A stretch of 32,000 nt of DNA from contig CP001848.1 of NCBI GenBank assembly GCA_000025185.1, positions 3,180,001 to 3,212,000 on the forward strand, in the 5' to 3' direction. How positions within the stretch are numbered: the first letter of the stretch is position 1; every line of letters starts with the position of its first letter. Positions 7,069 to 28,582 of the stretch are shown one piece after another. The notes under the pieces are model-generated. The model saw only the letters and a list, made by a program, of their open reading frames with translations, did not search any database and was not told where the DNA came from. This DNA is from Pirellula staleyi DSM 6068 (lineage in GTDB: Bacteria; Planctomycetota; Planctomycetia; Pirellulales; Pirellulaceae). The translations under genes were made by a program, and so were the position numbers.

Positions 7069-9384
7069 ATGCCATCTCTTCCGTTCCCTACGTTTCGACC
7101 TCTCTTCTTCGCAGCAATGCATCTCGTCGCCTCGCTGCTGATCGCACAGCAAATACCATCGCTCGGGGCCGAAGCACCTGCACCGGCGAAAACGCCCACC
7201 GATACGACTCCACCCGCCATCGCAGCGGCGAAAGAGCTAGCCACGATGGTGCAAAATCTGGCCCGCGATGCACGCAGCAGTGTGGTGGTTGTCACAGCCA
7301 GTGGACGTGAAGCTAGCGATACGCAGCTCGGCACCGGCTTTATCATCTCGGCCGATGGACTTGTTGCTACGAACTATCACGTCATTGGCGAAGGTCGGCC
7401 ACTGGAAGTTCGCACCGCCGACGGCAAGCAACTCGAAGTCATCGAGATTCACGCGACCGATCGTAATGCTGACTTGGCAGTTTTGCGGGTAAAAGCCGAA
7501 GGACTTCCGTTCCTGAAGCTGGGGGACTCGGCAAAGGTGGCTGAAGGGGAGCCGATTGTAGTGCTTGGGAATCCGCGCGGACTGAGGCACAGCGTGGTGA
7601 GTGGCGTGATCAGTGGCATGCGCGATATCGACGAGGCGGGGCTGAAACAAAAGATGCTGCAAATCGCCATGCCGATCGAGCCTGGCAACAGCGGCGGACC
7701 GGTTCTGAATCTGGCCGGGGAAGTGCTCGGCGTGGTGACAATGAAATCGCTTGTCACCGAGAATCTCGGCTTTGCAATCCAGGTGAGCGATCTGAAGCGA
7801 ATTCTCGAAAATCCCAACTCGCTGCCGATTGCACGCTGGATCTCCATCGGTGCGCTCGACCCCAAGCAGTGGACCACGCTGTTTGGCGCACGTTGGTCGC
7901 AGCGTGGTGGCAAACTCCTCGTCACAGGGCAGGGGAACGGTTTTGGTGGCCGCTCTCTCTGTTTATCGCAAGAGAAACCGCCTGAGCTTCCCTTCGAAGT
8001 TTCGGTAATGGTGAAAATGGACGACGAAGCCGGAGCTGCGGGGCTCGTGTTCCACAGCGATGGCGAGAATCGACACTATGGGTTCTATCCTTCGGCTGGC
8101 AATGTGCGGCTCAGCCGATTTGAAGGCCCCGACGTCTTTAGCTGGCAAGTTCTCTACGACAAACCGACAAAGGCCTATCGCGCGAAGGAGTGGAACACGC
8201 TCAAGGTGCGTGTGGAAGAAGGGGCGATCTCTTGCTTCGTCAATGACGAGCTTGTCACGAAGGTAGAAGATCGCGTCTACACCTCGGGACAGGTGGGACT
8301 TGCCAAATTTCGACAAACTTCGGCTGAATTTCGCCGTTTTCAGGTGGGTAAGAGTGTCCCACGTGCTCTGCCGAGTGAATCGGAGGCGAGTAGCATTCGC
8401 GAGCAAGTGGCGATGATTCCATCGCTACGCGAAATTGTGAGCGAGTCGCTTTCCCCCTTCACCAAGAATGCCAGCGCCAGCGTGCATGTGTTGCGAGACG
8501 AAGCGGCCCGCTTGCGGGCACGTGCCGATGAGCTCACGCGTATCGCAGCAGATGTTCGAACCGCGTCGGTCGTGGAAGAGCTTCGTAAAGTCGCAGGTCC
8601 CGAAGTGGCCGAGGTCGATCTCCTGGCAGCCTCGCTTTGGATTGCCTCGCTCGACGAAGAGGATGTCGACGTCACGGCGTACATCAAGCAAGTCGATCGT
8701 ATGGCAGCGGAGGTAAAGTCCTCTTTCACCGAGAAGCCCGCCGATGACGAAAAGATCACCAAACTCAATCGGCTGTTGTTCGATGAACTCGGATTTCATG
8801 GGAGCAGGGCTGACTATTATCAGCGCGCGAATAGCTACTTCAATCGTGTCCTCGATGATCGCGAAGGATTGCCGATCACCTTATCGGTGCTCTACCTTTC
8901 GCTGGCCAAGCGAATCGATTTGCCGATGGAAGGTGTCGGCATGCCAGGACATTTTCTCGTGCGGCATCGACCCGTCGAAGGGGAGCCGCAACTGCTCGAT
9001 CCGTTTGATCGCGGCGCAAAAATCTCGCGTGAGCAGGCTGCCAAGTTGATGCTCGAAAGCAGCGGTGCTGTGCTGGAAGATGAGCATCTAGTCGCAACGC
9101 CCCACCGGGCCATTGTGGTGCGGATGCTGCAGAACTTGCTAAATCTCGCACAAGGATCGCAAGATCGCGAGGCGATGATCCGCTATCTCGACGCTATGAT
9201 TGCCGTCGACCCAGCCTTGGTTCGCGAACGAGGCTTACGAGCGATTGTTCGTTTCGAAACTGGTCGGAAGCAAGCCGCTGCTATCGATCTCGACTGGTTC
9301 CTCGAAAAGAAACCGGAAGGGATCGACCTCGAGCAAATCGAAAGTATGCGGGCCTTTTTTCTCGAAGATAGCGGAAAGAACTAG
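7069..9384 (+). CDS. Secreted multidomain protein: S1C (HtrA/DegP-like) serine protease + DUF1080/concanavalin-like domain + SirB1-like transglutaminase-fold/TPR domain
   Basis: 771 aa with a hydrophobic N-terminus. Protease triad contexts: TNYHVI (His104, 7378-7380), DLAVLRV (Asp), GNSGGPVLN (Ser208, 7690-7692). The middle region (about 7861-8349) has the DUF1080-like pattern (AGLVFHSDG...WNTLKVRVEEGAISCFVNDELV...GQVGLAKF). The C-terminal region (about 8596-9363) parallels E. coli SirB1/YchA (LNRLLFDELGF...REGLPITLSVLYLSLAKRIDLPMEGVGMPGHFLVRH...LLDPF...RERGL). Confidence 0.85.
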   Translation: MPSLPFPTFRPLFFAAMHLVASLLIAQQIPSLGAEAPAPAKTPTDTTPPAIAAAKELATMVQNLARDARSSVVVVTASGREASDTQLGTGFIISADGLVATNYHVIGEGRPLEVRTADGKQLEVIEIHATDRNADLAVLRVKAEGLPFLKLGDSAKVAEGEPIVVLGNPRGLRHSVVSGVISGMRDIDEAGLKQKMLQIAMPIEPGNSGGPVLNLAGEVLGVVTMKSLVTENLGFAIQVSDLKRILENPNSLPIARWISIGALDPKQWTTLFGARWSQRGGKLLVTGQGNGFGGRSLCLSQEKPPELPFEVSVMVKMDDEAGAAGLVFHSDGENRHYGFYPSAGNVRLSRFEGPDVFSWQVLYDKPTKAYRAKEWNTLKVRVEEGAISCFVNDELVTKVEDRVYTSGQVGLAKFRQTSAEFRRFQVGKSVPRALPSESEASSIREQVAMIPSLREIVSESLSPFTKNASASVHVLRDEAARLRARADELTRIAADVRTASVVEELRKVAGPEVAEVDLLAASLWIASLDEEDVDVTAYIKQVDRMAAEVKSSFTEKPADDEKITKLNRLLFDELGFHGSRADYYQRANSYFNRVLDDREGLPITLSVLYLSLAKRIDLPMEGVGMPGHFLVRHRPVEGEPQLLDPFDRGAKISREQAAKLMLESSGAVLEDEHLVATPHRAIVVRMLQNLLNLAQGSQDREAMIRYLDAMIAVDPALVRERGLRAIVRFETGRKQAAAIDLDWFLEKKPEGIDLEQIESMRAFFLEDSGKN

Positions 9385-9418
9385 CTCTCTTCCCGCTCGT
9401 TTTTAGGCACTTCACGCA

Positions 9419-10819
9419 CTAGCGGTAGATGCTGCCGCGATCTTCAATGCCGCCTGCCACGGTCGTGTCGACTGGCTCGCGGGCAATGTTGGCACCATCG
9501 CGCGACGCTGCATCGCCTTGCCAAGGTTGGTTCACGGGACGTTCCCACTGAAACAGCACTCGCCCACTGGGAGCAGTGCGAGCAGTTGGTTGTGCCTGAA
9601 TGGGAGTGAGTTCGCGGTCCAGCACATTGCCACCGACCGGGCTCGAAATCGGACTCGAAGCAGGTATCGGAGCATAGCGATCGATGGTTCGTTCGCCAGC
9701 GACAGGAGCCGACGATGGCAAGGTTGTCGACACAGGCTGAAAGGGAGAGCCGGCAGGGGGGCTCGGCATTTGAGCCTGATCACGACGGTTTGAATACCAA
9801 CCTTCGGAGACCGGGCGCGAAACCGTTTCCGATTCGCGAGCGTCGGTCATTGGGGCTGCATTTTTGCTGGGAGCAGCGGGGAAGTTCGTCGGAGCGGCGG
9901 GCTGTTCGTAGCTGGCAGCAAACTCGCGGGCCGTATTTGTGCGTGGTTCGTCGAACTGCTGACGTGCAGCGCGAGCTGAACTTGCAAAATCACGACCATC
10001 CGATTCGCGTGTCGCTGCAGCAATCGATTCTTCGGTCGGAGCAGGTGCCAGGTCAGGACTTCCTTGACGAACCCACTCGAGCCAAGTCACTTGAAGTTCC
10101 GAGAGGCTCGAAAAACCGTAGAAGCGACGTGTCGTGGCGGTCCAGTTGTTGGTCTTCATCCCTTCGCCGACATAGTCGACGTACTTCCGCTTCCCACCTT
10201 GGAAAATTAGGTAGCGAGCGAGCGAGTAACCTTGCGAATAGAGGGGAAGAATGTCTTGAGGATACTCGGTCATCGCAAACATTTGATTGAAGGCGATACC
10301 CCGATCGGTGGTGAGGAACTGAATCAGGAACTTGTCTTGCTTCGCTTTCTCGACGTCGTGTTCCACCGTGGTGCAGGCACCTTCATCGGCCCAGCGTGGA
10401 AGAGGACGACCGAAGTGCGTAGCAAAGATGGTGTGGGTGATTTCGTGAGGCAGAACCGAGTCGAGCACACGTTCGCGTGATCCTTGGATCGACATCGTCC
10501 AGCCGAAAGGGACGCCCCGTTCGAACATGAAGGTCGTGGCGCCACCGGCACCGAGATTGTGATGCACGGTCGCTTCGATGGGGCAAGGTTGTTGCCACGG
10601 TGGAAGCTCGCGGCCAAGCCATTCAATCGCCAGGTCGCGTCGCAGCGTTTCAGCGGTGCGACAGATCTCTTCCGCGAGTTCAGGTGTGCTCGTGGTGACG
10701 AGAAAGTTTTGCGATCGTGCGCTGGCAGCCGAGGCCAGATTGCCTGTTGAGAGAGTGGCAACGATGGCGAGCGAGGCGACGATCAAACGTCGCGCGATGC
10801 AACTAGTACGAGCTTCCAT
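9419..10819 (-). CDS. Secreted zinc metallopeptidase (HExxH...E gluzincin-type) with long Pro/Ala/Ser-rich C-terminal tail
   Basis: 466 aa. Signal peptide RRLIVASLAIVATLSTGNLASAAS. HEITH at codons 125-129 (10433-10447), with a downstream RWADEGACT supplying a candidate third ligand Glu. About the last 210 aa are low complexity. Confidence 0.75.
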   Translation of the reverse strand: MEARTSCIARRLIVASLAIVATLSTGNLASAASARSQNFLVTTSTPELAEEICRTAETLRRDLAIEWLGRELPPWQQPCPIEATVHHNLGAGGATTFMFERGVPFGWTMSIQGSRERVLDSVLPHEITHTIFATHFGRPLPRWADEGACTTVEHDVEKAKQDKFLIQFLTTDRGIAFNQMFAMTEYPQDILPLYSQGYSLARYLIFQGGKRKYVDYVGEGMKTNNWTATTRRFYGFSSLSELQVTWLEWVRQGSPDLAPAPTEESIAAATRESDGRDFASSARAARQQFDEPRTNTAREFAASYEQPAAPTNFPAAPSKNAAPMTDARESETVSRPVSEGWYSNRRDQAQMPSPPAGSPFQPVSTTLPSSAPVAGERTIDRYAPIPASSPISSPVGGNVLDRELTPIQAQPTARTAPSGRVLFQWERPVNQPWQGDAASRDGANIAREPVDTTVAGGIEDRGSIYR

Positions 10820-11179
10820 GCTCAGGGTCCTTCCCGGGGGGCGGATGGTACGCTCGTGACTTCATGCCACGAGCGGATCGAGTTTGCGGGATAGTTACTT
10901 GCGGGAGCAACAATCGGGCCAAACTCGACACAATCCTTGTTGCCGTGTGGTTGAGATCGTCTCAACTACTGATGGCTTCAAGTTTTCAGCTACCTTCAAA
11001 CCGGGCGAGCAGCAGCATCCTAACTGACAGTCGACTCGGTGTTTTGGGCAGCTCCTTTGTAAGGTTTTCAAACTTAAACCGACTTTGGAAAAATCTCCTA
11101 GACCGAATCAGCCCCCGCCGACCGTTTTGCGAAAAGTTCTCCGAAGTTCTTCACTGCTGTTAGCTAGCACTGCGTGCTT

Positions 11180-18443: not shown

Positions 18444-18983
18444 CTACGGAAGTTCGAATACGCTGGTGATTTTCACCACGGCGCTGTCGTCGGGAAACGT
18501 GTGAAACGCTTTCACGACCAAGCTCCGGTTGCGAGCTTCGGGGTGGATATAGCTCACAGCACCGAGTGCCATGCGACCACTCGAATCGAACGTTTGCAGT
18601 ACACCGGTGGGGTCGTTTTCGCGTGTCAGTTCTTCTTGAAACGACCAAAAGACTTCGGGCGCGACGGTCTCGAGCTCGAAGTTCATGTGATACATCACCC
18701 CTCCACGGCACTCGACTCGATCGTTGCGCGATCCTTTGAGTCGGTACGACAGCAAACGACGCTTTTCGGGAAGCGGATGCTGGGCGGAGCAGGCGACTTC
18801 AGTGAGTGTGAGACCACGGTAGCGCCAGGTGATCACATGACCTGCCGAAGTGATGTCGATGGTGGCTTGATAGTCCCCACGTGATATCACTTGCGACTTG
18901 TGAACCGCGAAGAGTTCGGGATGCAGTGCTCGCCCGAAAAGCTGAAACGAAAGCTCGGCAACTTTGGGGCGAACAGTCAACAT
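18444..18983 (-). CDS. Conserved-looking hypothetical cytoplasmic protein (possibly DUF2617-like; family name uncertain)
   Basis: 179 aa from ATG 18983 (MLTVRPKVAELSFQLFGRALHPELF...). Composition is coding-like and there is no signal peptide or TM segment. I recognise no catalytic motif, and the DUF2617 attribution is only a weak recollection. The ORF is open to 19142. Confidence 0.55.
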   Translation of the reverse strand: MLTVRPKVAELSFQLFGRALHPELFAVHKSQVISRGDYQATIDITSAGHVITWRYRGLTLTEVACSAQHPLPEKRRLLSYRLKGSRNDRVECRGGVMYHMNFELETVAPEVFWSFQEELTRENDPTGVLQTFDSSGRMALGAVSYIHPEARNRSLVVKAFHTFPDDSAVVKITSVFELP

Positions 18984-19181
18984 GGCGACGGCAATTCCTT
19001 CGAAACACTGGGGACCAATCGCTGCTCGGGGCAACGTGTTTGACCCTCGCGATGGGTGCATTATACGCTTCGTGACGCGGGTCCACAAAGGCAGTTTAAT
19101 CCTTGAAAAGAACCGTGAAAAACGGCTCTTGACACGGCGCAAAATCGCGAGTCAGTCGCCCCCGAAGTGATCGAAGAACTG

Positions 19182-19973
19182 CTAGTCTTGCACGAAGGCC
19201 ACGAGGACGTCGTAGATGGCATGAGCGCCAGCAGCGATGCCAAAACCACGGTATGCAAACAAGACTGCGAAGTACGCGCCGGCGAGTGCTCGAAACACAA
19301 AACTGCTCCAGGCAAAGCGATCGCCAATCGTGGTTGCAAAGCGATACCCCAGGATTTCAAAATCGAATTGATAGTGGGCTGCTGCAAACAAAAGACTCGA
19401 GGCGATCACAGCTACCATCGTGGCAGCTGTGGGTTTGAGTCGCACGGCGAGCAGCACCCCATAGCAGATCGAAAACAGCAGCAGCCGAAACATTAGCTCT
19501 TCGTAGAGTCCCGCGCCGAGATAGCCGATCATCCTGGCCAACACCTCGGACATCGAGCCTGCAGTCGATGGAACGTAGAGCGACGGGAGCTGGGCAAAGT
19601 AGCTGCCGACAACAAACGCGATCGCCAGGAGCAGCGAACCGAGCGCCAACGACTCGAGCCACATCCAGCGGATGATCCGCATTTCGATCTTCCATGGATC
19701 GCGGCGCGTGTGATGCCATCCGAGCAAAATGGCCACGACCAGGATGGGGAGCAGAAAATACTGTCCAAAGCCGGCATAGGTGAGGGACTTGCGGAGCCAG
19801 ACGTCGGCACCATTACGGACGGCCCCACTTCCGAGCGCAACGACCCCAATCTCGTAGGCCAAGATCATCGGCAGTACGAAAATGAGCGCGGTGAGCGGAC
19901 GCTGCGACGCCTGCAAGTAGGCCTTAGCGCGCGAGTTCACCACGGAGTTAGGTGCCGCCGATTCGCCGGGCAA
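19182..19973 (-). CDS. CPBP-family intramembrane glutamic endopeptidase (CAAX protease/Abi-like)
   Basis: 263 aa, polytopic. Three CPBP motifs: EELMFR (EExxxR), FAAAH (FxxxH) and HAIYD (HxxxD/N). TTG start with GAAGGA 8 nt upstream. Confidence 0.85.
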   Translation of the reverse strand: MPGESAAPNSVVNSRAKAYLQASQRPLTALIFVLPMILAYEIGVVALGSGAVRNGADVWLRKSLTYAGFGQYFLLPILVVAILLGWHHTRRDPWKIEMRIIRWMWLESLALGSLLLAIAFVVGSYFAQLPSLYVPSTAGSMSEVLARMIGYLGAGLYEELMFRLLLFSICYGVLLAVRLKPTAATMVAVIASSLLFAAAHYQFDFEILGYRFATTIGDRFAWSSFVFRALAGAYFAVLFAYRGFGIAAGAHAIYDVLVAFVQD

Positions 19974-20002: not shown

Positions 20003-20044
20003 AAAAAGCCGCGAAGCTACCGACATTATCGGCAACTTCGCGGC
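20003..20044 (-). terminator. Rho-independent terminator after the Hint-domain gene
   Basis: 9-bp stem GCCGCGAAG/CTTCGCGGC (20008-20016 / 20036-20044) with additional inner pairing. On the minus strand it is followed by T5 (complement of A 20003-20007). A second short hairpin (AGCGAGG/CCTCGCT, 20061-20082) lies just upstream. Confidence 0.7.
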
Positions 20045-20087
20045 CAAATTTCTCAAGTCGAAGCGAGGCTACCCTCGCTTTTCGCTC

Positions 20088-22028
20088 CTAAGGGCGTGGT
20101 AGCCCCGGTACAAGCGTGCTCACCGGTTCTCGCATCGTCAGGTCGTGCGAAAGCAGCCGGTTTGAGCCGACAAAATAGCTGTGGAAGTCAGCGACCACCA
20201 GATTGTAGGTTTCGGCGACTCCTTCTTCGTCCACACTACTGACGCGCACACTGCCGTTTAAGCTGTGCAGCACCATGCCACTCTGTAAGTCGCTCGCTTT
20301 TTTCCACCCTTCACCGGCGACCCAGAAGACATGGCCGCCGCTGCAGGAAATGGTTTCGCCCCCGCAATCGATTTTGATGAGCTTCCCCGCTGGCCGTGTA
20401 CTCTTGCTCGTCGCAGGTCGCAGGGCGAGTTCGCCCGTTTTTGTATCCTGGGTGTAGATCAGGTCACCGACTTGGATCTTCTCGACCGCGACAGGACCAC
20501 GTGCTGTCCAAACCGGAGTTCCAGCGACAAGGCAATCCTTCGGTCGTCTCTGCTGATCCCAGTTAAAACCGCCGGTCAGAGGCTGGGAGGAGACTTGGGT
20601 GCTGCGCGGTGAATCGAAGCCCGGCTGAATTTGCCGGTCGATAATTTCGACTTGCCGGAACTCTTGCGAAATGGTGGTGGCTTTCGTTCCGACCGTTTGA
20701 AACTCGTTGTACTTCGTCCACCAATCCCACCAGGCTGAAGGTTCGGCTGCGATTTTGTCTTCGCTTGTTGCGATCGAGAGGACCCAGCAAATGCGATCGT
20801 TGATCTGCTGCGTGATGCGGTTTTCTGCTTCCGCTGCACTCAGGTTCTCGCCAATCTCAGCGGCGATTTCGGCTTGTGCTCGTTCTGTCGCGTTTTGCTG
20901 GATAGCGTTTCGCTCGGCACTTGAGTAGCGACGTCCACGATTGCCACTGTTTTGCTCGCGTACGAACTCGGCCTGGGCCACGGCAATTTCCCGGCGATCT
21001 TGGGTTTCTCGGACAAAGACTTGCTGGGTCCCGATCCGTCCCCCTTCGAGTTGCACCACAGCCCACTCGGCTCGAATGGGAGTGACCATCGAAGCGAGCA
21101 GCAGCGGAACGTAGGAATGCAGGTCGCGATCTTGCAGCAGCTTGGCCGCTTCTTCGCGAATGAACAGGCTGTCGTGCATCACAGCGTGCCGAGCCAGAGA
21201 TCGCGAGGCCTCTGTTTCAGGAATGGTTGCGAGCCACTCGATGGCGAGCATGCAAGGGACCTGGCCACTCGTGGAAACGATCGCTTCCACGGCAAACACA
21301 GCTTCGACATCACGCAGGGCCAGCAGTTCCTTCTTGGCCGCTTCACGCTGAATCTGGCTCCCCTTCACCAACTTTTCGACGATCTTTTGGAGCTGAACGC
21401 GGTACTTTTTGACGGAAGCAGCGCGGCGTGATTGTTCGATAGCACCGGCGGCTAGTTCAGCCTCGGTGGTCCAGCGCCCCTCGATGTTTTGAAAGCCGAG
21501 CATCCGCCGGGCAACAGCGTGGTCGGGATCGAGTTCGATCACCCGCTCGAGGTGCCCTCGGGCTTGCAAATGGAGTTTTTCAGCGAGGCACCACTCGGCC
21601 AGCTGAAGCTGTTCATTAGGGGTGTCGAGAAATTCACTCCGTTTGCGTTCGTACTTGGCGAGGCGTTTTTGCCAGAGTGGATCGACGAGCATGTCGTCGA
21701 CCGACTGCCACTCGCTCCGTTCGTTTCGCATCATCCCTTGCATCCAGCGGGGGGCCGGCAACTCGGGAGCGAGTCGGGCAGCCTCTTGCAGCAGTTCGCT
21801 CCGTTCGTCCGACAGGCCGTAGATTTCGCGCTGGAGCGCTTCGGCAACGTTTTCTTTCGCTTGGGTGAGCGCCGCAGCGCCACGCAGTTTTTCGACACGC
21901 GTCGCTTGCTGAGACCTTCCGACGGGAGAAGCTGCCGACGCCAATCGAGCTGCGATGAAATCGCCGAGCAAGATTGCCATCCCCAGCAGCAGAACAACGC
22001 GCAGAACCAACCCCCAAGAACGCAGCAT
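20088..22028 (-). CDS. Secreted/anchored TPR-HEAT-like protein with C-terminal Hint (bacterial intein-like) autoprocessing domain
   Basis: 646 aa from ATG 22028 (MLRSWGLVLRVVLLLGMAILLG...ASA, with AGAGGGG upstream). The ORF is open to 22094. The N-terminal about 500 aa are helical-repeat-like. The last 148 aa carry Hint blocks (see the separate domain feature). Confidence 0.85.
   Translation of the reverse strand: MLRSWGLVLRVVLLLGMAILLGDFIAARLASAASPVGRSQQATRVEKLRGAAALTQAKENVAEALQREIYGLSDERSELLQEAARLAPELPAPRWMQGMMRNERSEWQSVDDMLVDPLWQKRLAKYERKRSEFLDTPNEQLQLAEWCLAEKLHLQARGHLERVIELDPDHAVARRMLGFQNIEGRWTTEAELAAGAIEQSRRAASVKKYRVQLQKIVEKLVKGSQIQREAAKKELLALRDVEAVFAVEAIVSTSGQVPCMLAIEWLATIPETEASRSLARHAVMHDSLFIREEAAKLLQDRDLHSYVPLLLASMVTPIRAEWAVVQLEGGRIGTQQVFVRETQDRREIAVAQAEFVREQNSGNRGRRYSSAERNAIQQNATERAQAEIAAEIGENLSAAEAENRITQQINDRICWVLSIATSEDKIAAEPSAWWDWWTKYNEFQTVGTKATTISQEFRQVEIIDRQIQPGFDSPRSTQVSSQPLTGGFNWDQQRRPKDCLVAGTPVWTARGPVAVEKIQVGDLIYTQDTKTGELALRPATSKSTRPAGKLIKIDCGGETISCSGGHVFWVAGEGWKKASDLQSGMVLHSLNGSVRVSSVDEEGVAETYNLVVADFHSYFVGSNRLLSHDLTMREPVSTLVPGLPRP
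20142..20534 (-). other. Hint / bacterial intein-like (BIL) domain within the 20088-22028 CDS
   Basis: Starts at Cys (codon 20532-20534) in CLVAGTPVWT. SGGHVFWV is the block B (T/S)xxH. YNLVVADFHSYFVGSNRLLSHD are the terminal blocks, ending His-Asp (Asp codon 20142-20144) instead of His-Asn. The next residue is Leu, and only 17 residues follow. Confidence 0.8.
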
Positions 22029-22379
22029 GGCAAGCCCCTCTAGATACGAGGAAAGGAAGAGTAGAGTTGCTAGTGCTTGCCCCACACTCTGCAACGACCG
22101 GAATGCTACTTCTTTCTGGGAGTGCCGATCAAGATAAAAACGAAGAAACTTTTCCGAATGGATGAGTGAAAGGTGCAGCAGTGAATTGCTTCCTGGGAAC
22201 TGTGTTTTTCCTGGGTTTTAGTTAGGTGGCCTACTGGTCTCTGGGGTGGAGGGCCACCGGTACCGCAGCCTGTTCGTTGTTGCACGTGCTCTACTGGGGA
22301 ACTTACAATCCTGTGATATCTGTTGGTCTCCTCACCGCCAACTTCCCGCCTGTCACTCTGATTTGAGGAGTTGCTTTTG

Positions 22380-23153: not shown

Positions 23154-23427
23154 GCTAGCGATGCAACGCTGCGATGGCACGCTTCAGCCTCGCGCAACGG
23201 CAAACTGTACACCACCAATTCTTTTGCCTGATATTGTGAAGAACCGCTGGCCGATAAGTGCAAAGCGAGAACTTGTCTCCTCGCAGATAGTGGGGACATG
23301 CTAGCAAACGTTTCGGAGCCTCTTTTTTGCGAGGCTGTCACTGGGAATGTTGGCTCGGCAGGTTCCTTAGGAGGCTGTTAAACCGTTCTCTCCAAACAGG
23401 GCAATGGATTGCCCGGTAGGTACAAGG

Positions 23428-25344
23428 ATGTTGCTAAAAAAACTCTTTATCGCGCGGACCCTCGTGGTTCATGCGCTCCTCGCGCTTGTTACAGCCACCG
23501 CCTGGGCCGACCCAGCCGATGACGCGTTCGCTAGTGCTTATAAACAATACACCGCAGGTGAGTGGGCTACTGCTGCGCAGTCACTCGTGCAGTTCTCGGG
23601 CGATTTTCAGTCGCACCCTCGTGCCAATGAAGCCCTGTTCTACGCTGCCGAAGCGCTCGTCCAGGACAATAAGCTGGCCGAAGCGACAGTAATGCTCGAG
23701 GATCTCGTTAGCAAAGAGATCGATCCCGAACTTCGTCGGCAGTCCGATTTCCGACTCGCCGAAATCTCCTACCTCGATGGCAACGACGCCGACGCTCGCA
23801 AGCGTTTGATCGCGTTCCGTCAGGCGTATCCCAACGACTCGCTCAACGCCATGGTGCTGATGTACCTCGGCGAGATTGATCTCGCTTCCGAACAAATCGA
23901 CTCGGCGATTTCGCTCTTCTCGGAGTCGCTCGAAAACTATCCGAAGTCGACTTGCCGCCAGCAAGTACAGCTCGGTTTGGCCTGCGCTTGGCTCCGTCAA
24001 AAGCAAGTGAAGCCAGCGGTCGATGTGCTCGAGCAACTCGTCAAGAGCAGCGATGCCACGGTGGTGCGCAGCGCCAAAGACCTGCTCGAAATTGCCGCTG
24101 AAAATGAAAACGTAGCCGGTGGCACGGCGCTTCCACCAGCAGAGGCAGCGCTAGCTCGTGCTCGCCAGTTGCAGCAAGCACGGCAACTCGATGCGGCGAT
24201 CGCTCAGTTCACCGCCATCTATCGTCAGTATCCCAATAGCCCTCAGGCACCTTTGGCCAAACTCGGTGCAGCTCGCGTCCATCTCGAACAGAAGCAGTAC
24301 CGCGAAGCAGAATCGCTCCTCGCTTCGATCGACGAAAACGGCGCGAACGTCACGAACCTCGATGCCGTGCTGTACGAACGCGGCTGGGCTTTGGCGATGA
24401 TGGAAGTCCTCACGAAATCGGACGAGCTTTTTCAGCGTCTGCACAAAGAGTTTCCACACAGCATCTACTGGGCCGACGCCACCTATCGTTTGGCCGAACG
24501 CTCGGCGCGTCGTGGCGATTCGAAAGCCGCAATGACGCTGGTCGGAGAAGTGCTCGATTCGAAATGCGACGACTCGCTTCGTGTGCATGCTCTGTATCTC
24601 AAGGGGCAACTCGCTGCCACCGATCAGGAGTGGGCTGTAGTTTCGAAAACCATGGACGAACTCCTTGCGAGCGACGCCAATTCGCAGCTGGCTCCAGCAG
24701 CTCGCTACTGGAAAGCGGAAGCGACGTTCCGCCAAAAAGATTTTGAGTCCGCTGCCGAGCAGTTCGAGATCCTGGCAGCCCAGACCAGCGGTCGCGCCGA
24801 AACCTGGCTCGCGATGGTCGAACTCCGTCGTGCTCAAATCCTGGCCCACAAAGAAGAGTGGCAACAGTCGCTCGACATGCTCACGAATCTTCGCAAGCGA
24901 TTTCCAGCTTTCGCGCAGAAGCATGAAGCCGACTACCTGGAAGGTCGTTGCCTCGCCGCACTAGCGCTGCTTGATGATGCCCGCGCTGCTTACATGCGAG
25001 TTCTCGCCAGCGCCAGTGGCCAAGATACCGAAACGGCTGCCATGGCCGCTTGGATGATTGGCGAAAGTTATTTCCATCAGAAACGCTATCCCGAAGCGAT
25101 TGAAGCTTACGAACAGTGTGCACGTGGACACAAATTTCCCACGTGGCAATCGGCTTCGCTGCTGCAAGCGGGCAAGTGCCTGCAGCTGCAGAACAAAAAG
25201 TCCGAGGCTGCAGAATACTATCGCCGCGTGGTAAACGAATTTGCCGAAACCACGTACGCTGCCGAAGCTCGCGAACGTCTCGCCACCACCGATATGCCAG
25301 CGGCCGAAACAGCCGAAGGAAAAGCGGTCAGCAGCCGCGAATAG
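23428..25344 (+). CDS. Secreted TPR-repeat protein (YbgF/CpoB-like repeats), first gene of the ExbB-ExbD cluster
   Basis: Signal peptide MLLKKLFIARTLVVHALLALVTATAWA. Many TPR-like helical pairs (ANEALFYAAEALVQDNKLAEA, YPNSPQAPLAKLGAARVHLEQKQYREA, ...AEYYRRVVNEFAETTYAAEARERL). An alternative ATG lies at 23404. Confidence 0.8.
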   Translation: MLLKKLFIARTLVVHALLALVTATAWADPADDAFASAYKQYTAGEWATAAQSLVQFSGDFQSHPRANEALFYAAEALVQDNKLAEATVMLEDLVSKEIDPELRRQSDFRLAEISYLDGNDADARKRLIAFRQAYPNDSLNAMVLMYLGEIDLASEQIDSAISLFSESLENYPKSTCRQQVQLGLACAWLRQKQVKPAVDVLEQLVKSSDATVVRSAKDLLEIAAENENVAGGTALPPAEAALARARQLQQARQLDAAIAQFTAIYRQYPNSPQAPLAKLGAARVHLEQKQYREAESLLASIDENGANVTNLDAVLYERGWALAMMEVLTKSDELFQRLHKEFPHSIYWADATYRLAERSARRGDSKAAMTLVGEVLDSKCDDSLRVHALYLKGQLAATDQEWAVVSKTMDELLASDANSQLAPAARYWKAEATFRQKDFESAAEQFEILAAQTSGRAETWLAMVELRRAQILAHKEEWQQSLDMLTNLRKRFPAFAQKHEADYLEGRCLAALALLDDARAAYMRVLASASGQDTETAAMAAWMIGESYFHQKRYPEAIEAYEQCARGHKFPTWQSASLLQAGKCLQLQNKKSEAAEYYRRVVNEFAETTYAAEARERLATTDMPAAETAEGKAVSSRE

Positions 25345-25416
25345 CATCCGCAAGATGCTCCGCGATTGCGACGTCACTTGTCCAGGTCGTCCGAAAGTTA
25401 CAGCGAGATTCGAGTC

Positions 25417-26241
25417 ATGCGCCTTCGAACCAAGATTCTGCGATTCGTTGCCGCGACCAGCAGTCACTTGCGCTCGGTTGCGACGTTGACGCTGCTCGGA
25501 CTCGCAGCCTCGGCCAGCGCTCAAGAATCGATGGCAGATGTCGCCGCCGGTGAAGCGACCATTCCCACGAAAAATCTGCTCGACGTCTTCTACGACGGCG
25601 GGCCGTTGATGTATCCGATCGGGCTCAGTTCGTTCGTACTCATGATTTTTGTCTTCGAACGTTTCATCAGCCTCCGCCGTGGTCGCGTGATCCCTAAGCC
25701 GTTTGTGAAACGCTTCATCGAGCAGCTTCGCGAGGGACAACTCGATCGCGAGAAAGCGGTCGCTTTGTGCGAGCAGAATAAGAGCCCCGTTGCTGTGGTG
25801 TTCGCCGCTGCTGCGAAAAAATGGGGACGGACAGCAGTCGAAGTCGAGCAGGCGATTCTCGACTCGGGCGAACGAGTAACAAATCAACTCCGCCGGCACT
25901 TGCGGCTCCTCAACGGCATTTCGCAAGTCAGTCCTTTGCTCGGACTCCTGGGGACTGTGCTCGGTATGATCTCGAGCTTCAACGCCATCGCCACCGCTGA
26001 AGCATCTGGTCAGCGCGAAGCACTTGCCGGTGGCATTGCGGAAGCTTTGATCACCACTGCCGCAGGCATGCTGGTGGCGATTCCTGCGCTCATCGCCTAT
26101 CTCTACTTCGTCGGACGGGTCGATCAGCACATCACCGAAATCGACATGCTAGGGCAACAAGTGGTGGAGCTCATCTCGTCCGATGCGCTCGAGCAATCGA
26201 GCCGCGCTGCTCGGAAAGAACGAGCCAAAGCGGCCGCCTAG
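25417..26241 (+). CDS. exbB: MotA/TolQ/ExbB-family proton channel
   Basis: LLGLLGTVLGMISSF and GGIAEALITTAAGMLVAIPALIAYLYF match the ExbB/TolQ TM2-TM3 signatures. The N-terminal signal-like segment starts at ATG 25417. The ORF is open from 25366. Confidence 0.9.
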   Translation: MRLRTKILRFVAATSSHLRSVATLTLLGLAASASAQESMADVAAGEATIPTKNLLDVFYDGGPLMYPIGLSSFVLMIFVFERFISLRRGRVIPKPFVKRFIEQLREGQLDREKAVALCEQNKSPVAVVFAAAAKKWGRTAVEVEQAILDSGERVTNQLRRHLRLLNGISQVSPLLGLLGTVLGMISSFNAIATAEASGQREALAGGIAEALITTAAGMLVAIPALIAYLYFVGRVDQHITEIDMLGQQVVELISSDALEQSSRAARKERAKAAA

Positions 26242-26290
26242 CTCGCTACGAGGAAACCATCGCTAACTCCCCGAAAAACAGATCACTTCC

Positions 26291-26710
26291 ATGCCGCTGA
26301 AAACCCATCAAGACGAGATGCCATCGATCAATCTGACGCCGATGATCGATATCGTTTTTCAGCTCATCATTTTCTTTATGGTTGGTACTCGCTTCACGGA
26401 GATCGAGAAAAGTATCGATCTGAAATTGCCTCAGGTATCGAGTTCCGCCCCACTTTCGTCCGCTCCTCAGAAGCGGGTGATCAACGTGTTTCGCGATGGC
26501 AAAATTCAGATGAATCAACAGGAGTTGTCGCTCGGTCAGTTGACGAGCGAACTCAAAACAGCCCGCGAGCAGTACAACGAACTGGGGGTGGTGGTGCGCG
26601 GCGATGCACAGACTGACCTGCAAAATGTTGCCGCCATTCTGACCGCATGCCGCGAGGCGGGAATTTCTGATTTGGGAATCTCGGTCCGACTAGGAACCAA
26701 GGAACGATAA
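26291..26710 (+). CDS. exbD: ExbD/TolR-family biopolymer transport protein
   Basis: 139 aa. INLTPMIDIVFQLIIFFMV carries the conserved TM Asp (26348-26350). A periplasmic domain of typical length follows. Confidence 0.9.
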   Translation: MPLKTHQDEMPSINLTPMIDIVFQLIIFFMVGTRFTEIEKSIDLKLPQVSSSAPLSSAPQKRVINVFRDGKIQMNQQELSLGQLTSELKTAREQYNELGVVVRGDAQTDLQNVAAILTACREAGISDLGISVRLGTKER

Positions 26711-26713
26711 CCT

Positions 26714-28582
26714 GTGGCCGCGAGCAATTCCCTACTCCTGCTTGCTGCTGGTTCCAGCGATCGCGCCCTCGCTACGATTCTGTTCATTGGTCTAGCGATC
26801 CTCACCACGGGCCTTGTGACGTTGATGTGGACCCGCTGGGGGCATGCCCGTCCGCTCGCTAAATGCGCGGGGCTTTCGCTCTTCGCTCACTTGCTCCTTT
26901 TGATGTACGCCTATGGCACGCGCGTGCTGTTCGACTCACCAGGACGGATCACCTCGAGTGGCACGATGCAGGTGCGGCTCGCCGATGAAAATTCCGATCA
27001 AGATGCCTCCCCCGCCAGCGAAGACTCGCAGCAGCCCTGGGAATGGTCGGTTTCCGAAAAACCTGTTGGTCCCGATCTGCTGTCGCCCGATAAAGTGAAT
27101 TTGCCCGAGGAAGAGGTTGCTCAGAATCCTGCGGAAAATCCGCAGCCGAGCGACAGTCCTGCTCCGATGCCACCGCAACTGGTGCAGCGTGAACCTTCGC
27201 CTCCGGCGCTCCTGCCAGAGCCCCCAGCAGCGACTCCACCGGTTGATAAGACACCCACCGAAAACGCCGGGGATCTGGCCGAGATGGGGCCGATGCCGTC
27301 GGAAGCTGTCGCTCCAGAAGTGGCTGCTGTAGAGCCGCCAGCAGAGCCCGCGCCTCTCGTGCCCCGGCCGAACCCAGTTACCTCCTCGGCGCAGAATGTG
27401 TTCGAAACTTCCCGTGTCGGCCAGCTTCCGACCACCATTCGCCGCAGTGGCGACGGCAAGCCTGTTCCCGCACTGCTCCAAGCACGCATGCAGGCCGATC
27501 GACTCCTCATCGCGAGCCGCTTTGGTGGTACTCCGCAAACGGAAGCCTCCGTCGCTGCTGCCATCGACTGGCTAGTTGCAAATCAATCGGCCGATGGTCG
27601 CTGGGACTGCGATGCCCATGGTGGTGGCCGCGAAACTCGCACTTTAGGACACGATCGTGGCGGTGCAGGAGCACAAGCCGACACAGCAATCACAGGTCTT
27701 GCGCTACTGGCCCTCATGGGGCGTGGTGAAACACATCTGGCTGGCGATCATCGCGAGTCGGTGCAGCATGGCCTCGAGTTTCTCTTAGCCAGTCAAACTG
27801 ACGATGGATGCCTCGCAGGAAACGCCGAACTCTTTGCGGCGATGTATGCGCATGCCATCGCCACACTGGCCGTGTGCGAAGCGTTTGCGCTCACCGGCGA
27901 CGAGCGGCTGCAGCCTGGCGCGGCGAAAGCGATCGAGTACACACTTCGCGCTCAGCACGTCGCTGGTGGCTGGCGTTATCGCCCCGGAGATGCGGGCGAT
28001 ATGAGCCAGTTCGGCTGGCATGTGATGTCGCTCAAGAGCGCCGAACTCGCGGGGTTGCCGATTCCAGCCGAAACAAATCTGCGCATGCGCCGATTCTTGG
28101 CGAGTTGCACGTCGGGGCGTGCGCGGGGACTAGCGGCCTATCGTGCGGGCGATCGTCCCTCGCGCACCATGACCGCCGAAGCAATGGTTTGTCGCGGATT
28201 TCTCGGGGAAAACGTAGCCCAAGCGACCGCCAGCGAAGGGCTGCAATTCATTCTCGAAGAACGGCCGAGTGCACGCAGCGGAAACTTTTACTACTGGTAC
28301 TACGCGACCCTGGCGACGTTTCAGCAGCAAGGGCGCGAATGGGAAACGTGGAATCGTGAGCTACAGCGCGAGTTGCTTTCGACGCAGCGACTCGATGGAG
28401 CGATGGCTGGCAGCTGGGACCCCGATCAAATCTGGGGTGGCTACGGCGGACGTGTTTACAGCACGGCGCTTGGCGCACTCATGCTGGAAGTCTACTACCG
28501 CTATCTGCCGACACTGGGTGACGATGCCGCTGCTGCCGATCGTATTACTGAACGTCCCGACGTCAGCCCTTATGGGCGATAA
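26714..28582 (+). CDS. Membrane-anchored protein: two N-terminal TM segments (second with SxxxH), acidic Pro-rich spacer, C-terminal QW-motif (alpha/alpha)-toroid (prenyltransferase/squalene-cyclase-repeat-like) domain
   Basis: 622 aa. The GTG start lies 3 nt after the exbD stop. TM segments at about aa 17-39 and 50-67 (AGLSLFAHLLLLMYAYG). Residues 95-225 are rich in Pro/Glu/Ala (PSDSPAPMPPQLVQREPSPPALLPEPPAATPP...). The C-terminal region has QxxxGxW-type repeats: NQSADGRW, AQHVAGGW, SQTDDGCL, TQRLDGAMAGSW. Confidence 0.8.
   Translation: MAASNSLLLLAAGSSDRALATILFIGLAILTTGLVTLMWTRWGHARPLAKCAGLSLFAHLLLLMYAYGTRVLFDSPGRITSSGTMQVRLADENSDQDASPASEDSQQPWEWSVSEKPVGPDLLSPDKVNLPEEEVAQNPAENPQPSDSPAPMPPQLVQREPSPPALLPEPPAATPPVDKTPTENAGDLAEMGPMPSEAVAPEVAAVEPPAEPAPLVPRPNPVTSSAQNVFETSRVGQLPTTIRRSGDGKPVPALLQARMQADRLLIASRFGGTPQTEASVAAAIDWLVANQSADGRWDCDAHGGGRETRTLGHDRGGAGAQADTAITGLALLALMGRGETHLAGDHRESVQHGLEFLLASQTDDGCLAGNAELFAAMYAHAIATLAVCEAFALTGDERLQPGAAKAIEYTLRAQHVAGGWRYRPGDAGDMSQFGWHVMSLKSAELAGLPIPAETNLRMRRFLASCTSGRARGLAAYRAGDRPSRTMTAEAMVCRGFLGENVAQATASEGLQFILEERPSARSGNFYYWYYATLATFQQQGREWETWNRELQRELLSTQRLDGAMAGSWDPDQIWGGYGGRVYSTALGALMLEVYYRYLPTLGDDAAAADRITERPDVSPYGR

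Follow-up and report, generated by a model that had tools for sequence, protein, structure and literature searches.

The gene described here lies on the reverse strand of a 32,000-nucleotide stretch of Pirellula staleyi DSM 6068 DNA (contig CP001848.1, positions 3,180,001 to 3,212,000), referred to below as the window, and encodes a protein that ends in a Hint domain of the A-type bacterial intein-like (BIL) / PT-HINT class. The open reading frame (ORF) runs from a signal sequence through a helical and beta N-terminal domain of ~430 residues (the N-domain) and a disordered linker into the 131-residue Hint domain (C499 to D629) and a tail of 17 residues. The protein represents a large, undescribed, Planctomycetota-wide family of putatively exported proteins, in which N-domain, Hint domain and tail form an obligate unit with no toxin attached. 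Judged by its residues, the Hint domain appears catalytically competent. The reading favoured here, at a probability of about 0.4, is that the last 148 residues are a self-processing cassette resembling an A-type BIL, which would release the N-domain by hydrolysis of a thioester.

The assignment of the domain draws on profile, fold and block signatures. The PT-HINT profile (PF07591) matches the window protein at 62.4 bits, clearly above its cut-off of 27.7 (E=7e-17), and matches 32 of 32 family members, with the Hint_2 profile (PF13403) barely above threshold (29.7 bits against 28.4) and covering only positions 2-37 of its 147. Among entries of the Protein Data Bank (PDB) the sequence match is to 2LWY, the BIL domain of Clostridium thermocellum (E=1.3e-16), an alignment that places Cys499 on the mutated residue 1 of that structure, His628 on its penultimate position and Asp629 on its terminal one. 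When the AlphaFold model is compared with 2LWY in Foldseek the template modelling (TM) score is 0.88-0.91 and the root mean square deviation (rmsd) 1.4-1.9 A, the best superposition (TM 0.91, rmsd 1.4 A) extending over 137 columns where the predicted local confidence (pLDDT) is above 95; further down the list of fold matches come the Tetrahymena BUBL BIL2 domain and many mini-inteins. The family and 2LWY have in common the block-F signature Y-N-[LF]-x-V-x-D-F-H-T-Y-x-V-G. Profile, fold and block signatures all identify the domain as A-type BIL / PT-HINT; it is neither a Hog domain nor a canonical intein. An earlier, sequence-only reading of the window had recognised a Hint domain with Cys1, block B and a terminal Asp rather than Asn, which is borne out by these matches, and the codons that it gave all agree with the translation, which places Cys1, SGGH, His-Asp, the tail and the stop as in Table 1. 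Of the profiles that it put forward, the Hedgehog-type Hint (PF01079) did not match the window protein at E<=1, and weak matches to it occur in 7 of the 32 members, the best at E=5.8e-5.

The catalytic residues were counted over 229 non-identical family sequences. Cys1 (C499) is present in every one of them, so that no degenerate member lacking it was found in this set; Ser or Thr occupies the block-B position 563 in 227/229, and His566 and the block-F Asn609 are each found in 228/228, the latter being the A-type BIL state (compare VYNF in 2LWY). Because the residues of the first step are invariant, the bond between Asp498 and Cys499 very probably converts to a thioester. The -1 residue itself is D in 80, E in 74 and S in 69 sequences, Asp and Glu together making up 67%, and acidic residues at -1 favour N-terminal cleavage in inteins. 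At the other end of the domain the penultimate His628 is kept in 225/229 sequences and the terminal Asp629 in 227/228. Asn, the canonical terminal residue, is a single nucleotide change from Asp, yet it never occurs at position 629 in the family, a pattern of conservation which implies either chemistry at the C-terminal junction or a catalytic role specific to a carboxylate. Mean column entropy is 1.66 bits for the Hint domain, 1.71 for the tail and 2.50 for the N-domain, making Hint and tail the most conserved parts of the protein.

The conservation of the tail, on a par with that of the Hint domain, takes the form of a motif, [N/V/L]-T-x-R-x-P-T-x-x-x-V-P-G-L, after which 2-4 variable residues precede the stop; the last three residues have an entropy of 3.49 bits. 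The spacing HD-x11-PG is exact in 116/119 sequences, and P641 and G642 are found in 224/229 and 225/229, respectively. Since every synonymous codon of Pro and of Gly, four each, is used at these invariant positions, purifying selection acts on the protein and not on the DNA. The idea that the tail is conserved through an overlapping DNA feature was rejected on the same codon usage and on the differing genomic contexts, and that of a mere leftover, or vestige of a toxin linker, was rejected on the conserved motif. Practically all of the more than 300 relatives examined keep the short tail, the stop falling 0-18 residues past PGL and mostly 2-3. The description of a +1 Leu with a short tail and then a stop is right for the window protein, although Leu is a minority state in the family, where +1 is N in 167 sequences, V in 32, I in 10, F in 7, L in 6 and T in 2; Asn stands at +1 in ~73% and Thr or Ser at +2 in ~86%. 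One type of paralogue carries 15-18 extra residues past PGL. In another member (locus L071, 5764-7461) the protein ends SHDNTLCRQIADAVTAAQP, with HD and N-T kept and the PG motif lost; this may reflect a sequencing error or a naturally tail-less form, and among 131 loci retrieved L071 is alone in lacking the PG motif in an ORF that does not resemble a frameshift fragment.

The constancy of this ending bears directly on whether the protein is a decayed or truncated polymorphic toxin, created by frameshift, assembly artefact or toxin loss. PF07591 is normally a pre-toxin domain, and the NCBI annotation pipeline (PGAP) names relatives and fragments of the family 'polymorphic toxin-type HINT domain-containing protein'. 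Against such an origin, the same stop, 2-4 residues past PGL, recurs in independent genomes and metagenomes by the hundred, a strong terminator closes the gene, the family is conserved and not polymorphic, and there is no conserved neighbour resembling an immunity gene. Pfam and NCBIfam detect no domain after the Hint domain of the window protein, neither a toxin nor an immunity gene was seen among the neighbours at 84 loci, and orthologues never extend into a toxin domain. A truncated toxin is therefore so improbable as to be effectively excluded. The earlier proposal of a competent Hint domain at the end of an exported scaffold, without a toxin, continues to look sound because the Hint profile matches are significant, orthologues never run into a toxin and the acyl-shift residues are invariant.

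The coupling of the parts emerges from searches made with each end of the protein. In an exhaustive profile search, more than 150 clusters at 50% identity carry the full architecture (575-740 residues, >498 bits), with alignments that reach the final 1-3 profile positions; this search gave thousands of relatives, with 2,424 matches at E<=1e-30, as against only 6 from a word-indexed protein search with either the full-length query or a profile. When the N-domain alone was used as bait in metagenomes (with 8 closer sequences, an 18-sequence alignment being too divergent), each ORF that could be traced to its stop has Cys1 33-73 residues past the WWxWW motif and the HD-x11-PG tail, the exceptions being three apparent frameshift fragments. 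No homologue lacking the Hint domain was found among these ~33 traced ORFs or ~84 genome loci, a limited sampling, and no 'pre-spliced' homologue, with the N-domain fused straight to the tail, among ~120 complete ORFs from two scans. A profile of Hint plus tail recovered 530 proteins, of which the best 120 are all of 135-277 residues. The possibility that this cassette also sits on other N-terminal domains was rejected, the 13 matches on long contigs that were read being truncated calls or fragments of the same family. N-domain, Hint domain and tail form an obligate unit because the N-domain bait yields Hint and tail, and the Hint-plus-tail matches read as the same family.

In species-representative GTDB genomes 155 relatives were found, nearly all in Planctomycetota, including Pirellulales, Planctomycetales, Thermoguttaceae and Schlesneria. 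Several paralogues per genome are often present, several metagenome-assembled genomes (MAGs) hold two unlinked loci, and tandem head-to-tail full-length paralogues occur at L003 (1575-5474), L074, L066 and L079. Loci L066 and L084 come from MAGs labelled Deltaproteobacteria and Granulosicoccus and are probably mis-binned planctomycete contigs rather than cases of horizontal transfer. At L049, from one MAG, a 690-residue ORF (8965-11034) lies ~1.3 kb downstream of a family gene and has a Hint end of the form ...VLVHN|QSNGG with ~220 residues beyond it, a canonical Asn end with a long C-terminal extension that contrasts with the HD-tail form of the family. A search of the literature library found no paper tying planctomycetes to Hint or intein-like domains.

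Where the tail goes after leaving the active site is suggested by structure prediction and covariation. With an alignment of 32 sequences AlphaFold leaves the tail disordered, and with 144 sequences it returns a compact model (predicted TM score, pTM, 0.85) in which the tail is ordered at a pLDDT of ~92, forming strands at 638-640 and 643-644, with new beta-bridges at Gln444 and Lys497. Mutual information with average product correction (APC), computed over the 229 sequences and not corrected for phylogeny, gives tail positions 630, 632 and 633 their highest scores with three sets of positions, namely 441, 443 and 444 in the N-domain, the -1 residue, and 564 and 567, which neighbour the block-B His; the distal tail covaries weakly with Hint strands (546, 576, 584-586, 599-602), and +1 covaries with -1 (z=3.0). 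The model and these couplings suggest that the tail, having left the active site, contacts the stretch that follows the WWxWW helix before coming to rest on the Hint sheet. The Trp-rich motif, in which W433, W434, W436, W437 and N441 are each at least 90% conserved, is likewise predicted to make contact with the Hint junction and with the tail where it begins.

In the mechanism proposed, the N-domain of the folded precursor would pack by its Trp-rich end with the scissile Asp498-Cys499 bond, the active site of Hint and the tail, while the linker loops out. Cys499, aided by Ser563-x-x-His566, would then perform an N-to-S acyl shift that places the N-domain on a thioester, and on resolution of this thioester the N-domain of ~460 residues would part from Hint and tail. 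The invariant Asp629 may help to resolve the thioester, its carboxylate acting as general base, or may slowly cleave the C-terminal junction, and the 14-residue tail would serve as a docking clamp belonging to the cassette. Hydrolysis, amounting to a cis-autoproteolytic maturation, is favoured because no other fate is as simple and because the closest relatives that have been characterised behave mainly in this way; an acidic -1 residue would favour it too. In type A BILs the N-terminal thioester is formed, the C-terminal junction is cut by Asn cyclisation and the result is mainly cleavage products, with splicing sometimes occurring by aminolysis from the freed C-terminal flank; in some inteins the place of Asn can be taken by Asp or Gln (PMC4031507, PMC7664689). 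The sequence-only reading had offered two fates, release of the scaffold or its attachment to the envelope, and each keeps its place as a candidate that sequence cannot separate from the other; the invariance of Asp629 adds BIL-type splicing to the tail as a third.

Several observations weigh against hydrolytic release. Cleavage in vivo is a prediction from sequence and model, and the evidence for the docking partner of the tail consists of DSSP changes and the phylogeny-uncorrected mutual information. Plain hydrolysis leaves unexplained why the terminal residue is Asp and never Asn, as well as the strong conservation of the 14-residue tail and of the interface between N-domain and Hint, and the higher conservation of Hint compared with the N-domain that it would merely release. 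A Cys1 located in the periplasm could also be oxidised, and the conserved Cys147 of the N-domain might trap it.

Some of these observations would sit more easily with a transfer reaction like those of Hedgehog and BUBL proteins, in which an envelope nucleophile (an amine of peptidoglycan or protein, a glycan or a lipid hydroxyl) attacks the Cys499 thioester and the N-domain becomes anchored through Asp498. Asp629 would then be the general base, the Trp-rich motif and the tail the acceptor site and the linker a flexible tether. That Asp629 is never Asn, though one mutation away, fits a carboxylate-specific role; prediction or covariation puts the conserved WWxWW motif and the tail beside the junction; the greater conservation of Hint over the domain released is in keeping with transfer; and a flexible, variable linker would suit a tether. 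There are precedents in the transfer of Hedgehog to cholesterol and in BUBL BIL2, which forms isopeptide bonds to Lys (PMC8616854). Transfer is nonetheless unlikely, although the least unlikely of the alternatives to hydrolytic release: the acceptor is purely hypothetical, with no partner gene conserved across the 84 loci, the tail is far too short for a domain like that which recognises sterols, the role given to Asp629 is speculation, and characterised A-type BILs mainly hydrolyse (PMC4031507).

The invariant His-Asp, at the position of the intein His-Asn, points to a further possibility, in which Asp629 cyclises to an anhydride, the tail is freed but stays docked, and the alpha-amine of residue 630 attacks the thioester. 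The N-domain and linker would be ligated to the 17-residue tail and the Hint domain excised. Asp or Gln can replace Asn in the cyclisation, and type A BILs do splice by this aminolysis route (PMC4031507); a docked, conserved tail would hold the amine near the thioester, and the covariation of +1 with -1 counts in its favour. Splicing is, however, a minor outcome for known BILs, no pre-spliced homologue appeared among the ~120 complete ORFs, and the distal tail covaries with Hint strands and not with the N-domain, suggesting that it stays with Hint. An excised and yet highly conserved Hint domain is also hard to rationalise, and this outcome is appreciably more doubtful than transfer.

A compact predicted precursor (pTM 0.85) would also be in keeping with a protein that is not processed at all, or whose thioester is reversible or trapped, the Hint domain being a structural or regulatory part of an intact periplasmic protein of ~610 residues, for instance a redox sensor built on Cys499 and Cys147. 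These are the only two conserved cysteines, and redox-trapped intein precursors are present in the PDB, with 3NZM among the fold matches. Invariance of the acyl-shift machinery across a phylum, with no member found without Cys1, is hard to explain without catalysis, and such a static role is judged improbable, about as much so as splicing or slightly more. Hydrolytic release is retained as the preferred account of the cassette.

The remainder of the protein fits less well with the description first given to it, as a signal or anchor followed by ~500 residues of TPR/HEAT-like sequence. The hydrophobic N-terminus is upheld: such a segment, with no other stretch resembling a transmembrane helix, is present in 144/158 family members, and from its sequence the protein is probably exported through a Sec signal. 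A purely TPR/HEAT-like scaffold is not upheld. Pfam gives a single weak TPR_14 match in the window N-domain, with HEAT_2 matches in 16/32 members, and the model combines helical repeats (TPR-like at 137-178, HEAT-like at ~225-312) with a three-strand beta-meander (319-358), followed by a long helix of ~50 residues (370-421), the Trp-rich helix (430-440) and a strand (450-463). The PDB yields no relative of the N-domain by sequence or, with Foldseek, by fold, and NCBIfam gives nothing. Cys147, found in 223/229 sequences, is the sole conserved Cys apart from Cys1 and might serve in redox pairing, in ligand binding or as an acceptor. His159 (225/229) follows 12 residues later, and the two lie on adjacent helices of a TPR-like hairpin. 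The linker is the region of highest column entropy (3.10 bits), with a pLDDT below 50 over residues 469-496 in the 32-sequence model and 474-493 in the deep-alignment model.

Table 1. Features of the gene and its surroundings, in window positions
Feature	Position	Strand	Basis or remark
ORF, complete gene (646 aa + stop)	20088..22028	-	ORF list
Signal/anchor segment at the N-terminus, aa 1-35, MLRSWGLVLRVVLLLGMAILLGDFIAARLASAASP	21924..22028	-	translation; putative Sec signal
N-domain, aa 42-468	20625..21905	-	AF2 pLDDT mostly >90; weak Pfam TPR_14, HEAT_2 in 16/32 members
Cys147 and His159	21588-21590 and 21552-21554 (span 21552..21590)	-	conservation in family alignment
Trp-rich segment, aa 430-444, PSAWWDWWTKYNEFQ	20697..20741	-	motif P-x-x-W-W-x-W-W-N-x-x-N-E
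Linker, aa 469-498, ending at -1 residue Asp498	20535..20624	-	disordered, length-variable
Hint domain, A-type BIL / PT-HINT class, aa 499-629	20142..20534	-	profile, 2LWY match, fold
Cys1 (C499), opening CLVAGTPVWT	20532-20534	-	translation
Block B, S563-G-G-H566	20331-20342	-	translation
Block F, Asn609	20202-20204	-	conserved in 228/228 sequences
Terminal His628-Asp629	20142-20147	-	translation
Tail, aa 630-646, LTMREPVSTLVPGLPRP	20091..20141	-	conserved motif; PGL at 20100-20108
Stop codon	20088-20090	-	translation
Intrinsic-terminator-like hairpin	20007..20045	-	18-bp stem, 10 G-C pairs, then T-run TTTTCATTTC; 43 nt past stop codon
Rce1-like/CPBP intramembrane protease (PF02517)	19182-19973	-	directly downstream, past hairpin
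DUF2617 protein	18444-19142	-	downstream of CPBP gene, same strand
TPR protein (646 aa), ExbB/MotA, 622-aa protein with weak squalene-hopene-cyclase-like repeats	23404-28582	+	

The ATG at 22028 is preferred as the start over an upstream TTG at 22094, which would add 22 residues, because the 646-residue form agrees with the gene calls for the 99%-identical protein P0001 and its cluster and with the orthologue alignments, which also begin there. Beyond the other end of the gene, the terminator that the sequence-only reading had placed at 20003-20044 was found, here at 20045..20007 on the reverse strand.

The genes around the locus offer little that is shared by the family. An all-versus-all clustering of flanking ORFs from the 84 loci gave no family-wide neighbour besides overlapping frames of the gene itself, and the next real cluster occurs in 12/84. 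The CPBP protease was considered as a family-wide partner in processing the tail and rejected, being adjacent in only 5/84 loci, all close relatives, and not beside P0003, P0005 or P0006; the DUF2617 gene is adjacent in 6/84. Only among the closest relatives do the Hint, CPBP and DUF2617 genes follow one another in this order (L001, L009, L010, L011, with partial agreement in L059, L004 and L008). CPBP proteases elsewhere take part in processing C-terminal signals, and a link to the PGL tail that is specific to this lineage can be imagined, if unsupported. Upstream and divergent are a gene resembling a 3-keto-disaccharide hydrolase and then the TPR/ExbB cluster, which looks like a Tol/Ton-like module for energising the envelope with an alpha/alpha-toroid partner. 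The cluster is syntenic in L001, where ExbD is called between the last two genes, and in L009.

Why does a Hint domain in this setting matter? So far, Hint/BIL domains of bacteria have been met chiefly in two settings, in selfish inteins and ahead of polymorphic toxins, which they serve to release. In the present case what is probably the same chemistry has become fixed in a conserved, phylum-wide family of apparently exported proteins without a toxin. The novelty lies in a BIL cassette that ends in Asp, is fixed in its host and has no toxin, with a conserved and probably docked tail, within an undescribed planctomycete envelope family, and the invariant catalytic residues, the invariant terminal Asp and the tail point to a housekeeping step of maturation or attachment in the poorly understood planctomycete envelope. 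Were the N-domain transferred and not released, the family would provide a bacterial counterpart of Hedgehog/BUBL chemistry in housekeeping envelope biology, a proposition to be held with considerable doubt. It would represent covalent protein anchoring in Planctomycetota independent of sortase and L,D-transpeptidase, which would be new to bacteria, and a natural Asp-terminated Hint domain would in that case be useful to protein engineers.

Comparison with known systems places the family closest to the A-type BIL / PT-HINT domains, both in sequence and in fold (2LWY, and the Hint domains of MafB, CdiA and Rhs-type toxins). Common to both are Cys1, the block-B T/S-x-x-H, the block-F Asn in Y-N-L/F, DFHTY-VG and the penultimate His, and they are alike in lacking a +1 Cys, Ser or Thr, in being an endonuclease-free mini domain of ~131 residues and in belonging to a secreted host protein. 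They differ at the terminal dipeptide, which is an invariant His-Asp in the family and His-Asn in A-type BILs. Unlike the hosts of PT-HINT domains, the family has neither a toxin nor a variable C-terminal region, its conserved 14-residue motif being followed by the stop; the host protein is conserved across the phylum and not hypervariable, and the Hint domain was not seen to be absent from it in the limited sample of ORFs and loci traced.

The architecture was first described as Hedgehog-like, and in a loose sense this is apt. Both systems have an exported cargo, a Hint domain and a short C-terminal extension, with Cys1 and T-x-x-H, and both lack a +1 nucleophile, so that the thioester would be resolved otherwise than by splicing. 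By sequence and fold the likeness fails. The sterol-recognition region (SRR) of Hog comprises ~60-70 residues, and the Hog junction is Gly-Cys, with Gly at -1. The window protein is a PT-HINT protein without a PF01079 match; its extension is of 17 residues compared with ~60-70, with no SRR and no known lipid acceptor, the family -1 residue is D, E or S and not Gly, and His-Asp is retained. The second-best structural match, at a TM of ~0.8, is BUBL BIL2 of Tetrahymena (PDB 6Y75/6TMM), whose thioester conjugates the N-terminal flank to amines through isopeptide bonds to Lys (PMC8616854). BIL2 differs in being eukaryotic, with ubiquitin-like flanks, a terminal Asn, ~20% identity and no signal peptide.

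Class 1 mini-inteins (gp41-1, Npu/Ssp DnaB, Mtu RecA) share the fold (TM 0.75-0.87) and the residues of step 1, and a few inteins likewise have Asp or Gln as their last residue (PMC4031507). The family departs from them in having no +1 nucleophile, in not interrupting a housekeeping protein at a conserved site and in a C-terminal flank of just 17 residues, and from canonical inteins in that no intein-less alleles were seen in the limited sample of ~33 N-domain-bait ORFs and ~84 loci. Finally, the Hint domain is here more conserved than the N-domain of its host, which is the opposite of what is found with selfish inteins or polymorphic toxins.

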